From a virus (taxonomy: Duplodnaviria > Heunggongvirae > Uroviricota > Caudoviricetes): 23,895 nucleotides of DNA. Position numbers and translations under genes: made by a program. Shown in pieces: positions 9,683 to 15,213 of this stretch. Within the stretch, counting starts at the first letter, position 1, and each line of letters starts with the position of its first letter. The notes below the pieces were generated by a model, which did not search any database, was not told where the DNA came from, and was given only the letters and a program-made list of their open reading frames with translations. Where the stretch lies: the IMG/VR virus record IMGVR_UViG_2667527698_000003. One strand, given 5' to 3'.

Positions 9683-10571
9683 CGTGTTCACCCTCACGAA
9701 CTTTCAGGTAGGTATTATCGTTAAGCAGGAAATCAAATCCCTTTTTGTGCCAGACGGTTCCGCGTTGATGGTTTGGGCGCTCTTCGAACATCCATCGGCA
9801 ATTTTCGCCAACGTAGCTCAAATAATTTCTCCAGTCCTGCATCGTGAACCCATGCCCGTCAAGCTGGCGGGTTATCACTCCGGCTTTGCGCCAGAACGTT
9901 CGGATCTGGTTTTTACGCTTGTCATTCAGTGCGCGGATTCTTGGAGCTTCAGGAAGGATTTCGTGGTAAGCATCGACAACATCCTGACAGCTGACGGAAG
10001 GTTTTTTCTTGTCAGACTTTTTGTCTGCTGTGGCACTCTCTAATACGTCAGTATTAGAGATAATATTATTATATTCTTTATCTGTGGTAATTTGCTGGTA
10101 ATCTGCTGGTACAGCATTGCTTACAGGCATTGGTATTGCTGGCTTTGAGGTGGTAATTTGCTGGTAATCTGCTGGTACAAAATTTGACTGATAATCGTCA
10201 TATTTCTCTACTGAGAAAACTGAGAATTTACCGTGTGAAACCCAGTCAATCATGCCGAGTTTTTTGAACTTTCTAAGCAGGTACTGAACGCGATCTGGTT
10301 TGAGTCCTGTTTCAAACGCCAGAGAGTTTCTACCGCCAAGTAGCTTCCCTCTGCCTACCAGAATTTCTCCTGCGTCAGTCATTACATACTCAGGCGTATG
10401 CTTTGCTTTGAGGATTAAGTGAACCCACAGATGCGCTGCTTCTGCATCCTTGTAAAACGGCACATCCATAATTTTACGGTGCAGCAAGGCATACCCCTTA
10501 CCGCTGCTTTGATGCGGTTGTTGTAGCCTTCTGGCCTCTCTGGCTTCGGCTAGATTAGATATGTTACTCAT
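9672..10571 (-). CDS. Replication initiator O-like protein (P22 gene 18-like)
   Basis: 299 aa; N-terminal replisome-organizer-like region; internal duplicated [10 protein letters not shown] encoded by the iterons; AAGGAG RBS. Confidence 0.8.
10055..10179. repeat. Candidate origin: direct repeats (iterons) plus AT-rich stretch inside the O-like gene
   Basis: tggtaatttgctggtaatctgctggtaca at 10085..10113 and again at 10151..10179, with sub-repeats GCTGGTA; adjacent AT-rich 10055..10082. Confidence 0.5.
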
Positions 10572-10710
10572 GACCTTTCTCCTTCTGCATCAGCTTCACT
10601 TTTTCCAACTCAGCCCGGAATCGACCAGGCTGCTTGAAGCTGGACAGGAAGCGATCACGTAGTATGTGTTTGTGAATTTTGTCCTGGTAAGGACTGAGTT
10701 GTTTTGTCAT
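10564..10710 (-). CDS. Small ORF (48 aa) between cII-like gene and O-like gene
   Basis: Manual translation [48 protein letters not shown]; GGAG 6 nt upstream. Confidence 0.4.
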
Positions 10711-10742
10711 AATTACTCCTGTGGATTGATCCAGTAATTCCC

Positions 10743-11039
10743 TCAGAATTGCATATCAATTTGCTTAAAATCCTCGGTGGCGGCCGGGGATTTTTTCTTT
10801 GTGATTTCATCAAGCGCATACTTAAAAGCCCTGCTAATCGGACTGATGTCTGATGCCATTCCGAAAGCACACAAGACCGAAGCAATAAATCTCCAGTCCG
10901 TTCTGCTTATCTTCGATTCATGACAGCCAATCATCTTTGCCAGACCGCGCTGGGTAAGCGTTGACAGGTTGATGAGTAAATCAGTTTCAGCGCGATCAAT
11001 TTCTCGCTGTGTTGGCTTGCTGTAGCTTGCTTGTGCCAT
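10743..11039 (-). CDS. c1: CII-like transcriptional activator (P22 c1-like)
   Basis: 98 aa; HTH region and position immediately after cro. Confidence 0.7.
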
Positions 11040-11107
11040 TTGTTAATTTTCCTATATTGATATTGAGTTATAGCGGCACACCCAATGGATTTGCCGCTGA
11101 TGTTTGC

Positions 11108-11148
11108 TCACCCGGTTAGAGGTGAAAGGCCAGAACTGTTAAAGAGCA
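11108..11148 (-). promoter_or_regulatory. nutR-like site (boxA + boxB hairpin)
   Basis: Minus strand TGCTCTTTAACA (boxA-like) followed by stem-loop tcacct-CTAACC-gggtga. Confidence 0.5.
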
Positions 11149-11154
11149 ATTTGC

Positions 11155-11340
11155 TTATGCCGCTTGGCGGTAAGCACTTTCTTGATACTTCAGGGCGCCA
11201 GCTGTAACGATTTCCAATCGATAGGCGTCTTTCTCTGGGATAACTTCTTTCCACTGAGAGACTGCTGCATCGCTAATGCCTAGTGCTTTAGCAACAGCAC
11301 GCTGGGTTCCGAAGTGGTCAATAACATCTTTTTTGTACAT
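11155..11340 (-). CDS. cro: Cro repressor (P22-type)
   Basis: 61 aa, MYKKDVIDHFGTQRAVAKALGISDAAVSQWKE... HTH; divergent from c2. Confidence 0.85.
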   Translation of the reverse strand: MYKKDVIDHFGTQRAVAKALGISDAAVSQWKEVIPEKDAYRLEIVTAGALKYQESAYRQAA

Positions 11341-11420
11341 AGACTCGCTCCGAAATTAAAGAACACTTAAATTATCCACCAAAGGAATCTTAAGTCAAGT
11401 TTATTTAAGATGTCTTAACT
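11341..11420. promoter_or_regulatory. OR operator region with divergent pR/pRM
   Basis: 80-bp cro-c2 intergenic with dyad sites ATTTAAGATGTCTTAACT (11403..11420) and ATTAAAGAACACTTAAAT (~11355..11372); c2 ATG directly abuts the operator (leaderless-like). Confidence 0.6.
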
Positions 11421-12071
11421 ATGAATACACAACTGATGGGTGAGCGTATTCGCGCTCGCAGAAAAGAACTCAAGATTAGGCAGGCTGCCCTTGGCAAGAT
11501 GGTTGGCGTGTCTAATGTTGCTATTTCCCAATGGGAGCGATCTGAAACTGAGCCCAATGGCGAAAACCTATTGGCCTTAGCCAAGGCTTTGCAGTGCTCC
11601 CCTGATTACCTGTTGAAAGGAGAGGATAGTCTTTCAAACATTGCCTATCACAGCAGGCATGATCCAAGAGGTTCGTATCCTCTAATTAGTTGGGTAAGCG
11701 CAGGATGTTGGATGGAAGCTGTAGAGCCATATCATAGGCGTGCAATAGATAACTGGTACGACACAACGGTAGATTGTTCTGAAGACTCTTTTTGGCTCGA
11801 CGTTAAAGGCGATTCAATGACTGCCCCGGCAGGACTGAGTATTCCTGAGGGGATGATTATTCTCGTCGACCCAGAAGTCGAACCACGTAATGGAAAGTTG
11901 GTAGTCGCCAAACTTGAAGGAGAAAACGAGGCGACATTCAAAAAGTTAGTTATTGATGCCGGTAGAAAATTCCTGAAACCACTCAATCCACAATACCCAA
12001 TGATTGAAATCAATGGGAACTGTAAAATCATTGGCGTTGTCGTTGATGCCAAGCTAGCAAACCTTCCTTAA
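11421..12071 (+). CDS. c2: C2 prophage repressor (HTH + S24 LexA-like autopeptidase)
   Basis: 216 aa; N-terminal HTH, C-terminal ...GDSM...K... S24 motifs; recalled as P22 C2. Confidence 0.9.
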   Translation: MNTQLMGERIRARRKELKIRQAALGKMVGVSNVAISQWERSETEPNGENLLALAKALQCSPDYLLKGEDSLSNIAYHSRHDPRGSYPLISWVSAGCWMEAVEPYHRRAIDNWYDTTVDCSEDSFWLDVKGDSMTAPAGLSIPEGMIILVDPEVEPRNGKLVVAKLEGENEATFKKLVIDAGRKFLKPLNPQYPMIEINGNCKIIGVVVDAKLANLP

Positions 12072-12094
12072 GGGGCTTTCGCCCCTTTTTTATT
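12071..12094 (+). terminator. Rho-independent terminator after c2
   Basis: aggggctttcgcccct hairpin followed by TTTTTTATTT. Confidence 0.6.
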
Positions 12095-12160
12095 TCCCGT
12101 TAAAAATCAAAGACAAACTAAATTCACGCCCATAAAATTAAGTTTTCTTCAAAAATGCAC

Positions 12161-12190
12161 TTGACCAATAAATTAAGAAGTCTTAAATTT
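12161..12190 (+). promoter_or_regulatory. pL-like promoter with overlapping OL operator
   Basis: TTGACC - 17 nt - TAAATT; palindrome TTAAGAAGTCTTAA overlaps the -10. Confidence 0.5.
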
Positions 12191-12234
12191 AAGCCATCAG
12201 CAGGACGCTGGAAGCCAAACGGAACAGATTGGCA

Positions 12235-12275
12235 GGCTCTTTAACATCGACGGACTCTCAACCTAACCGTTGAGA
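12235..12275 (+). promoter_or_regulatory. nutL-like site (boxA + boxB)
   Basis: GGCTCTTTAACA then perfect hairpin tctcaac-CTAACC-gttgaga (same loop as nutR). Confidence 0.55.
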
Positions 12276-12385
12276 CCAGAACTTGAGTGGTTTTGGGGAT
12301 GGCGCGAATTGCAGCTGCAAGACAGCGATCGAGAAGATAAGCACCTCGACGCGTCATGCGCCAAAGCCACTTAAAGGAGACCATC

Positions 12386-12691
12386 ATGGTAACCATTGTC
12401 TGGAAAGAATCCAAAGGTACGGCAAAAAGCCGCTACAAAGCTCGCAGAGCAGAACTTATTGCCGAGCGACGCAGTAATGAAGCACTGGCGCGAAAAATTG
12501 CGCTAAAGCTCTCTGGTTGCGTCAGAGCAGACAAAGCAGCATCGCTAGGATGCCTTTGCTGCAAGAAGAAAGAAGAAGTCGTTCGAAAAAATAGAAGTAT
12601 TTATTACAAAGATTCAAACCCATTAGGAAACAAAATACATGCAGTCCAAAAAATAAAATTGTACAGTAAACTACCGTACGGTGCTTATTGA
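12386..12691 (+). CDS. N-like antiterminator (arginine-rich motif) with divergent AT-rich 3' end
   Basis: MVTIVWKESKGTAKSRYKARRAELIAERRSNEALARK...; GGAG 6 nt upstream; C-terminal ~27 codons AT-rich. Confidence 0.65.
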   Translation: MVTIVWKESKGTAKSRYKARRAELIAERRSNEALARKIALKLSGCVRADKAASLGCLCCKKKEEVVRKNRSIYYKDSNPLGNKIHAVQKIKLYSKLPYGAY

Positions 12692-12693
12692 GT

Positions 12694-13032
12694 ATGCTTA
12701 TGGTGAAAAAGACTATTTATGTTAATCCTGACCGCGGACAAAACAGAAAAGTATCTGATAGAGGTCTTACATCTCGAGACAGGAGGAGAATAGCGAGATG
12801 GGAAAAAAGGATAGCATATGCATTAAAAAACGGTGTAACACCTGGATTTAATGCTATAGATGATGGCCCTGAATATAAGATTAATGAAGACCCAATGGAC
12901 AAAGTTGACAAAGCATTAGCAACACCATTTCCTCGCGATGTCGAAAAAATTGAAGATGAAAAATATGAGGATGTAATGCACAGAGTTGTTAATCACGCTC
13001 ACCAACGAAATCCAAATAAAAAATGGTCATAG
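12694..13032 (+). CDS. Hypothetical accessory protein (about 112 aa), AT-rich
   Basis: ORF 12688..13032; basic N-terminal half (DRGQNRKVSDRGLTSRDRRRIARWEKR), acidic C-terminal half; own terminator. Confidence 0.45.
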   Translation: MLMVKKTIYVNPDRGQNRKVSDRGLTSRDRRRIARWEKRIAYALKNGVTPGFNAIDDGPEYKINEDPMDKVDKALATPFPRDVEKIEDEKYEDVMHRVVNHAHQRNPNKKWS

Positions 13033-13055
13033 CCCACTTCGGTGGGTTTTTTATT
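13031..13055 (+). terminator. Rho-independent terminator
   Basis: cccacttcggtggg hairpin + TTTTTTATT. Confidence 0.7.
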
Positions 13056-13067
13056 GTCTGAACAAAC

Positions 13068-13157
13068 CTAATTTACTACCGCAAGCCACGCAGTGAAATG
13101 GGTGTGACTTGTGTTGGTCGCCAGAAAATGAAATTAGGCAGCAAACCACTTATTTGA
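13068..13157 (+). pseudogene. Orphan 3' end of an N-like gene (29 codons, no start)
   Basis: Translates LIYYRKPRSEMGVTCVGRQKMKLGSKPLI*, colinear with the C-terminus of the N-like ORF at 12386..12691 but separated from it by the AT-rich cassette. Confidence 0.5.
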
Positions 13158-13165
13158 GGTGATAT

Positions 13166-13252
13166 ATGGAAGAAGAATTTGAAGAGTTCGAAGAGCATCC
13201 TCAGGATGTGATGGAACAATACCAGGACTATCCGTATGACTACGACTATTGA
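13166..13252 (+). CDS. Tiny acidic Tyr-rich ORF (28 aa)
   Basis: MEEEFEEFEEHPQDVMEQYQDYPYDYDY; GAGGTGA 5 nt upstream. Confidence 0.3.
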   Translation: MEEEFEEFEEHPQDVMEQYQDYPYDYDY

Positions 13253-13322
13253 TAAAAATCAATGGTGTGGACAATACGAACGACGGCAATGATTTCCAGA
13301 GAACTTGGTAAACAGAACAACA

Positions 13323-13350
13323 AGGCTGCCTAATGGCAGCTTTTATTTTT
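13323..13350 (+). terminator. Rho-independent terminator
   Basis: gctgcc-taat-ggcagc hairpin + TTTTATTTTT. Confidence 0.7.
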
Positions 13351-13469
13351 GCCATAAAAAACAGAATAAACACTGCTCTGTGTATTCATTCCAACGAGTG
13401 AATACACGGAGCAATGTCGCTCGTAACTAAACAGGAGCCGACTTGTTCTGATTATTGGAAATCTTCTTT

Positions 13470-13497
13470 GCCCTCCAGTGTGAGGGCGATTTTTTAT
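13470..13497 (+). terminator. Rho-independent terminator
   Basis: gccctc-cagtgt-gagggc hairpin + GATTTTTTAT. Confidence 0.6.
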
Positions 13498-13515
13498 CTA
13501 TGAGGATATGAATAG

Positions 13516-13884
13516 ATGTCAAACATCAAAAAATACATCATTGATTACGACTGGAAAGCATCAATAGAAATTGAAATCGACCATGACGTAATGACAGAGG
13601 AAAAACTTCACCAGATTAATAATTTCTGGTCAGACTCTGAACACCGACTCAATAAACACGGCTCTGTATTAAATGCTGTATTAATCATGCTGGCGCAACA
13701 TGCTCTGCTTATAGCAATTTCAAGCGACTTAAATGCATATGGTGTTGTGTGTGAGTTCGACTGGAATGATGGAAATGGTCAGGAAGGATGGCCTCCAATG
13801 GATGGTAGCGAAGGAATAAGAATTACCGATATCGATACATCAGGAATATTTGATTCAGATGATATGACTATCAAAGCCGTCTGA
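13516..13884 (+). CDS. Hypothetical protein (122 aa), acidic
   Basis: ORF track; GAGGA RBS; preceded by two terminators and a 9-bp-stem palindrome. Confidence 0.55.
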   Translation: MSNIKKYIIDYDWKASIEIEIDHDVMTEEKLHQINNFWSDSEHRLNKHGSVLNAVLIMLAQHALLIAISSDLNAYGVVCEFDWNDGNGQEGWPPMDGSEGIRITDIDTSGIFDSDDMTIKAV

Positions 13885-13993
13885 GCGCTGCGTTACCGCA
13901 TACCAATAACGCTTCACTCGAGGCGTTTTTCGTTATGCAATAAAACAGAAGGAGCATCCTATGTGAAGTGGTCAACAAAAACTGGCCACCGAG

Positions 13994-15141
<1,148 letters not shown>

Positions 15142-15213
15142 TATGGCACCTGTGTTGTTCTGAGGTGAGCATATCACCTCTGTTCAGGTGGCCAAATTCA
15201 GTAAACCACTTCA

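Follow-up and report, generated by a model that had tools for sequence, protein, structure and literature searches.

A 23,895-nucleotide stretch of Caudoviricetes DNA (IMG/VR record IMGVR_UViG_2667527698_000003; hereafter the window) very probably carries the nun exclusion module of a lambdoid prophage with phage-21-type antitermination. In this module, a moron consisting of tail A (an AT-rich alternative 3′ end of N, with the promoter P_Nun), nun and the terminator t_nun is lodged in the 3′ end of the antiterminator gene N. The lambdoid immunity region occupies window positions 10743-13900 and is read here with pL rightward (Table 1). Downstream of pL, whose transcription start as annotated in the phage 21 record is equivalent to window position 12196, the plus-strand order is nutL, N, an ORF of 110-114 aa (the cassette ORF), a 28-aa acidic ORF, ea10/DUF2528 and an IS3-family element. 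The genes proA and proB adjoin the prophage. An Rfam scan of 10500-14200 gave no match.

Table 1. Coordinates of the features of the immunity region in the window.
Feature	Position	Strand	Description
cII-like gene	10743-11039	minus	
cro-like gene	11155-11340	minus	
cI/C2-like repressor gene	11421-12071	plus	
pL-like promoter of the leftward early operon	12161..12189	+	TTGACC, 17 nt spacer, TAAATT; consensus scan
nutL	12236..12275	+	boxA GCTCTTTA 12236-12243; phage-21-type boxB hairpin 12256-12275
N antiterminator, 101 aa	12386..12691	+	N-terminal ARM and centre of phage 21 type, joined to tail A
Tail A, AT-rich alternative N 3′ end	12575..12691	+	homologous to the phage 21 tail, diverged
P_Nun, putative constitutive nun promoter in the N reading frame	12639..12667	+	-35 ATGCAG 12639-12644; -10 TACAGT 12662-12667
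nun, predicted transcription arrest and lambda-exclusion factor	12700..13032	+	110 aa from ATG 12700; older annotations start at 12694
t_nun, intrinsic terminator	13031..13055	+	stem AGCCCACTTCGGTGGGTT, then T-run; hairpin from 13031-13048; terminator scan
Tail B, orphan phage-21-type N 3′ end	13061..13157	+	95% identity with the 3′ end of phage 21 N
28-aa acidic ORF, MEEEFEEFEEHPQDV...	13166..13252	+	PHROG 16060, E = 7.1e-19
ral pseudogene, MTTTIDKNQWCGQYERRQ*	13236..13292	+	aligned to phage 21 ral; phage 21 Ral translation compared
ea10/DUF2528 gene	13516-13884	plus	

Identification of the cassette gene

A sequence-only reading of the window had described the cassette ORF as matching nothing recognised, and had noted that it lies at a position where lambdoid phages carry exclusion genes. 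We found that the ORF matched HK022 Nun in the PDB (6ALG chain N; 108/109 identical, E = 2.3e-71), with S11R as the sole residue difference, and the PHROG 5632 profile "Nun-like transcription termination factor" over 112/112 positions (E = 4.8e-71). Residues 20-45, comprising the ARM, were identical (26/26) to the Nun peptide in the boxB complex PDB 1HJI, and the C-terminal arrest motif HAHQRNPNKKWS, with its penultimate Trp, was identical to that of HK022 Nun. At the DNA level, nun was 98% identical to HK022 nun, and window positions 12574-13049 were 96.8% identical to the HK022 nun region. Judged by these matches, the cassette ORF is the nun gene of HK022. The positional expectation was thereby borne out, since nun is a superinfection-exclusion gene. 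The claim of novelty fell, as a match to a well-known family, which the reading had named beforehand as evidence against it, was found.

Scans of the ORF against Pfam, NCBIfam and PADLOC gave no match, and none of the three contains a model for Nun; the protein was identified through PHROGs and PDB sequence search only. Ral was also considered for the cassette ORF and rejected, given no Pfam match and the presence of ral itself further on. The suggestion of a Ral-type gene thus failed for the cassette ORF and held for a position further downstream, where the gene is a pseudogene.

Published work assigns boxB binding to the ARM of Nun and the arrest of RNA polymerase to its C-terminus (PMC4124055; PMC5386594), and describes a requirement for W108 (PMC4124055). 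Nun excludes lambda and lambda imm434, which have NUT sites in common (PMC4124055; PMC5386594), and abundant Nun is toxic in a boxB-independent manner (PMC4124055).

The AT-rich character of the cassette was confirmed, with a GC content of 0.36 for the cassette as a whole, 0.308 (31%) for tail A and 0.372 for the ORF, as against 0.487 for the 5′ part of N and 0.476 for the whole window. The cassette's own terminator, also proposed earlier, was recovered in the terminator scan as a hairpin followed by a T-run, and a homologous hairpin lies 3′ of nun in HK022 and all other loci. Taken together, tail A (with P_Nun), nun and t_nun are, as far as homology can tell, a promoter-gene-terminator unit, that is, a moron.

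A hybrid N gene with phage 21 nut sites

The N protein matched PHROG 271 over residues 1-99 (E = 3.9e-30, profile search), and its score against the Pfam N_peptide model (PF25694) was 18.1 bits, under the 27.9-bit gathering cut-off. Its ARM was identical (22/22) to the boxB-binding peptide of phage 21 N (PDB 1NYB chain A), and phages mEp235 and mEpX1 annotate the same protein as N. The DNA was colinear with phage 21 N, at 97% identity through the ARM and central region as far as ~12574. Both nutL (including boxA-L) and nutR were identical to the annotated phage 21 sites, and no lambda-type boxB was found in the whole window, even with two mismatches allowed.

The sequence-only reading had proposed that the 3′ end of N was exchanged, and alignment to phage 21 N, the check that it had suggested, upheld this and placed the breakpoints. 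On the left, colinearity stops in a transition zone at ~12544-12574, with no single sharp point; on the right, homology resumes at ~13061. The protein translated from the hybrid gene ends in ...RSIYYKDSNPLGNKIHAVQKIKLYSKLPYGAY, i.e. in tail A and not in a phage-21-type tail, and tail A differs from phage 21 at 21 nonsynonymous codons. Phage 21, in contrast, has a contiguous N with a tail-B-type C-terminus and no nun. From these comparisons, N is best seen as combining the phage 21 ARM with an alternative allele of the tail.

The new tail is no foreign filler. Tail A aligned over its full length with the phage 21 tail, tail B and a lambda-type N tail, and kept six residues invariant among all N tails compared (Y74, G81, Q88, K89, K91 and S94). 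On this alignment tail A represents a diverged N C-terminal allele, which also carries the putative nun promoter. The N C-terminus is known to bind RNA polymerase (PMC3526286). When tail A was compared with its most diverged lineage, the ratio of synonymous to nonsynonymous codons was 7 to 10, a count that is underpowered and does not by itself demonstrate protein-level constraint. That isolated plaque-forming phages bearing the hybrid N, e.g. mEp235 and mEpX1, are viable suggests that it works, and is the sole basis for saying so.

Tail A travels with nun. It was found in 218, and nun in 221, of 5,426 complete E. coli genomes, and among 77 viral-contig loci essentially every close relative had it 5′ of nun. 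The N 5′ modules to which it is attached are of at least two kinds, one with the phage 21 ARM and one with the "NARNRRRARRQAQREQ" ARM (L006, L069 and L072), and tail A is 96.8-99% identical in HK022 and O276, in which it lies directly 3′ of putL. A 15-nt near-repeat (14/15 matching) was noted between TCGAAAAAATAGAAG in tail A (12583-12597) and TCGAAAAAATTGAAG inside nun (12941-12955), and may be due to chance in AT-rich sequence.

The putative nun promoter within the N reading frame

The P_Nun hexamers were mapped by alignment from the phage O276 record MH547045, that is, the HK022 immunity region as annotated by R. King's lab ("nun gene promoter"), and were 100% conserved in the window. In O276, the -35 and -10 hexamers lie 55 bp and 32 bp, respectively, upstream of the nun coding sequence. 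In 2000, King, Madsen and Weisberg reportedly located P_Nun immediately 5′ of the nun coding region. The hexamers were conserved in all nun lineages sampled, with TATAGT and TACGGT as variants of the -10. They are absent from the phage 21 tail, which has GTGTTG and GGCAGC at these columns. The -10 falls on the codons Leu-Tyr-Ser (TTG TAC AGT), where phage 21 reads Leu-Gly-Ser (TTA GGC AGC). A consensus promoter scan of the window did not call P_Nun, the hexamers being weak, and its assignment here is predicted from homology to the annotated O276 record.

The cassette has in common with morons, as defined in HK97 and HK022, its own promoter and terminator, a lower GC content and absence from a colinear relative, and, as predicted for the cassette, expression from the prophage to the benefit of the host. 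The two differ in that the usual moron promoter lies in an intergenic gap, whereas P_Nun would lie inside the reading frame of N, the essential gene upstream, and in that the exchange took in the N tail as well. If the assignment is right, an essential gene can thus harbour the constitutive promoter of a neighbouring moron in its coding tail.

The orphan N tail and the sequence downstream

Downstream of t_nun, the sequence-only reading had recognised a stranded original N 3′ end without gene context, colinear with the C-terminus of N, and this was confirmed. The translation of 13068-13157 (LIYYRKPRSEMGVTCVGRQKMKLGSKPLI*) matched the C-terminal columns 144-171 of the 176 of PHROG 271 (E = 2.2e-11), far above chance, and 13061-13291 aligned at 95.7% identity with the 3′ end of phage 21 N plus its downstream flank. 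The start at 13068 proposed for the orphan holds for the N-tail translation and not for the homology, which begins already at ~13061. Tails A and B were colinear over their whole length, at ~60% DNA identity. An in-frame TGA (13059-13061) precedes tail B, and the only in-frame ATG is internal (13098).

Tail B lies 3′ of nun in most of the 77 viral loci, and the sample held more than 40 variants with 0 indels. It is mosaic, its last third or 3′ half existing as two N-tail alleles. Its stop codon and a Shine-Dalgarno sequence (TGAGGTGA) come before the next gene; tail B always ends in this sequence, and the ATG that comes next belongs, depending on the locus, to one of at least six genes.

In the window, as in phage 21, tail B is followed by the 28-aa ORF and ral. 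The highly acidic 28-aa ORF (MEEEFEEFEEHPQDVMEQYQDYPYDYDY) was 100% identical to an unannotated stretch of phage 21 between N and ral. It is normally found 3′ of phage 21 N, and its ATG is position-equivalent to the nun ATG after tail A. Unlike in phage 21, ral is a pseudogene in the window, with a 103-bp internal deletion between CAAT microhomologies; a "Ral family" CDS annotated in E. coli 2014C-3338 is about as short, at 72 bp. The IS3-family element (~13994-15177, minus strand; orfA of 112 aa and orfB of 272 aa) is inserted in the pL operon right after ea10, where relatives have cIII and kil, and may have impaired the prophage for lytic growth. Together with the ral pseudogene, it may mean that the prophage is partly defective. 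Expression of nun should be unaffected by these defects because nun would have its own promoter.

Comparison with HK022

HK022 has the same upstream 125 bp as the window, including the annotated P_Nun, and a homologous terminator. It differs in lacking the 5′ part of N and nutL, so that putL abuts the tail A remnant, and in lacking tail B, with IS903 in its place. In the window, unlike in HK022, N is complete and accompanies nun, and the nut sites are those of phage 21. In HK022/O276 (L002 1440-1560 / L005 1200-1320), the last ~39 codons of N are retained between putL and nun, with TGG in place of the TGA stop codon of the remnant. An HK022-type left side together with tail B on the right was seen in loci L058 and L060.

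Although HK022 is the textbook N-less phage, the ~39-codon remnant 5′ of its nun implies an ancestor that had both N and nun. This remnant and the location of P_Nun inside the N reading frame may be new; a literature search, whose reach did not extend to older HK022 papers, found no description of the N-tail remnant or the orphan tail. The findings in the window leave the accepted view of how Nun or N works unchanged, and we regard them as real but ordinary.

Origin of the cassette

Phage 21 is colinear with the window on both sides of the cassette and lacks the cassette itself. The left boundary varies by lineage, the PA28/Stx1a group being phage-21-like for a few codons further, in line with homologous exchange within the conserved centre of N. 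Two kinds of layout were observed. In the simple layout, t_nun runs directly into AACAGAATAAACAC..., a sequence found at ~13356, after ral, in the window; it occurs with a complete N (L006 and L071) and with tail A only, abutting putL (HK022 and HK75). The majority layout, which includes the window, has tail B after t_nun. By parsimony, we infer that N(tail A)-nun-t_nun, without the duplication, was the ancestral layout, the order of events not being provable. Since loci such as L006, L071 and HK022 lack tail B, the orphan may have been made by one illegitimate join, in which the sequence just after t_nun would have been connected to that just before the tail of a phage-21-family N gene. Such a join would give the layout of the window and leave tail B as the orphan. 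Tail B would then persist as the stop/Shine-Dalgarno (ribosome-binding) junction for the next gene, and also as a homology patch for the exchange of downstream modules.

Other origins were weighed. A local tandem duplication of the N tail within one phage, with nun between the copies and the upstream copy diverging to become AT-rich, would fit the colinear homology of the two tails and the fact that both junctions lie within ~15 bp of the same N position (phage 21 coordinates ~1975 and 1989; locus L001). However, tails only ~60% identical between flanks that are 95-97% identical to phage 21 would need very different ages or sources. Moreover, tail A-nun occurs without tail B (L006, L071, HK022 and HK75) and with a different N 5′ module, and is therefore an independent unit and no local derivative of tail B; we consider a duplication improbable. 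Still less probable is the insertion of the cassette into N by a mobile element or a site-specific mechanism, a reading to which the sharp GC contrast, the precise absence from phage 21 and the closeness of the two junctions would lend themselves. A repeat search at the cassette edges turned up neither terminal inverted repeats nor a target-site duplication, no transposase or integrase is encoded in the cassette, and a left boundary that differs between lineages fits homologous exchange and not a fixed site.

The preservation of tail B invites another explanation, namely that it is expressed, e.g. as a 19-aa peptide from ATG 13098 (MGVTCVGRQKMKLGSKPLI), and kept for a function of its own. Its retention 3′ of nun in most loci and the lack of indels among its variants speak for this. 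However, an in-frame stop lies just upstream, the ATG has no obvious Shine-Dalgarno sequence before it, tail B is directly behind an intrinsic terminator, and loci of the HK022 and L006/L071 types do without it. Its 3′ half is also swapped between two N-tail alleles, as expected from recombination with intact N genes, and such recombination with the N of other phages would keep tail B open without selection. Expression of tail B for its own sake is thus very unlikely, and the illegitimate join remains the reading that we prefer.

Proposed working of the module

In the repressed prophage, P_Nun would be constitutively active from within the last third of the N frame and provide Nun, with t_nun ending the transcript. 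When lambda or a lambda-imm434-type phage superinfects, the ARM of Nun would bind the lambda-type boxB hairpin on the nascent RNA of the invader. Nun on boxB would block lambda N, while the Nun C-terminus (..HAHQRNPNKKWS) would lock RNA polymerase, so that early transcription of the invader would arrest, resulting in exclusion. Lambda imm21 escapes Nun. Development of the resident phage would be spared because it uses phage 21 N, nutL and nutR and has no lambda boxB, and the resident Nun should, as predicted from these sites, exclude lambda-nut phages without harm to the resident phage. Tail A being homologous to the normal RNA-polymerase-binding tail, N itself would keep its function.

We also considered that tail A might be a co-adapted N C-terminus, which would allow the resident N to act on RNA polymerase in cells where Nun, which binds the same enzyme, is always present. 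Such co-adaptation would explain both the near-constant company of tail A and nun in the E. coli genomes (218/221) and the graft of tail A onto at least two unrelated ARM modules. If true, tail A would double as protein tail and promoter, and HK022 would come from an N-positive, nun-positive ancestor. We hold this to be unlikely, as plain physical linkage, in which the promoter must adjoin nun, accounts for the same data more simply.

Distribution and relatives of the module

The arrangement, far from being a one-off, turned out to be common and already annotated, and the gene is well known. The nun-positive genomes amount to ~4% of the complete E. coli genomes, and 213 genomes covered at least 80% of the N-nun-orphan query. 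The module was also found in the phages mEp235, mEpX1, Kapi1, PDP110P1 and PA28 and in a series of Stx1a-converting phages. GenBank already names both genes in mEp235 and mEpX1 ("antitermination protein N" and "transcription termination factor Nun"). In RefSeq, however, nun is labelled "hypothetical protein" in most sampled rows, and occasionally "transcriptional regulator", for want of a model in Pfam, NCBIfam or PADLOC, and surveys of prophage defence will therefore miss nun. Outside E. coli, a scan of GTDB representatives detected nun in Shimwellia, an Escherichia sp. and one metagenome-assembled genome, along with a distant Proteus homolog, four loci that are too few for taxonomic conclusions; the metagenome-assembled genome is probably mis-binned.

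Hybrid N, nun, terminator and tail B are shared by mEp235, mEpX1, Kapi1, PA28 and the Stx1a phages at 92-99% DNA identity, whereas the genes downstream of tail B differ: the divergence of mEp235 begins precisely at the stop codon of tail B, that of mEpX1 within tail B itself. Members of the PA28/Stx1a group (L007 2501-2839; L062-L067) have lost 1 bp close to the end of tail A, and the resulting frameshift makes N read into nun (...PPYGLIEYAYGEKDYLC*) with an overlap of ~30 nt.

More distant nun-like genes, 34-41% identical, were noted at L077 2155-2776, L079 2200-2788 and L088 (Proteus vulgaris); their conservation is chiefly in the C-terminal VVNHAHQRNPNKKW and an ARM-like KMRRYLARG. The nun-like gene of L077 directly follows an N-like gene (PF25694, E = 1.4e-13), and L079 has two nun-like genes in tandem. 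Finally, L081 1706-2587 (also L082-L084) encodes a 293-aa protein of PHROG 12139 (E = 8e-206), to which no function is assigned there and which had no match in Pfam, NCBIfam or PADLOC. It lies directly 3′ of a lambda-type N (ARM MDAQTRRRERRAEKQAQWKAAN), and its C-terminal end, NPVNHAHQRNPNKKWS, places the Nun RNA-polymerase arrest motif on a large unrelated body, so that it could be a different exclusion factor reusing the Nun C-terminus.
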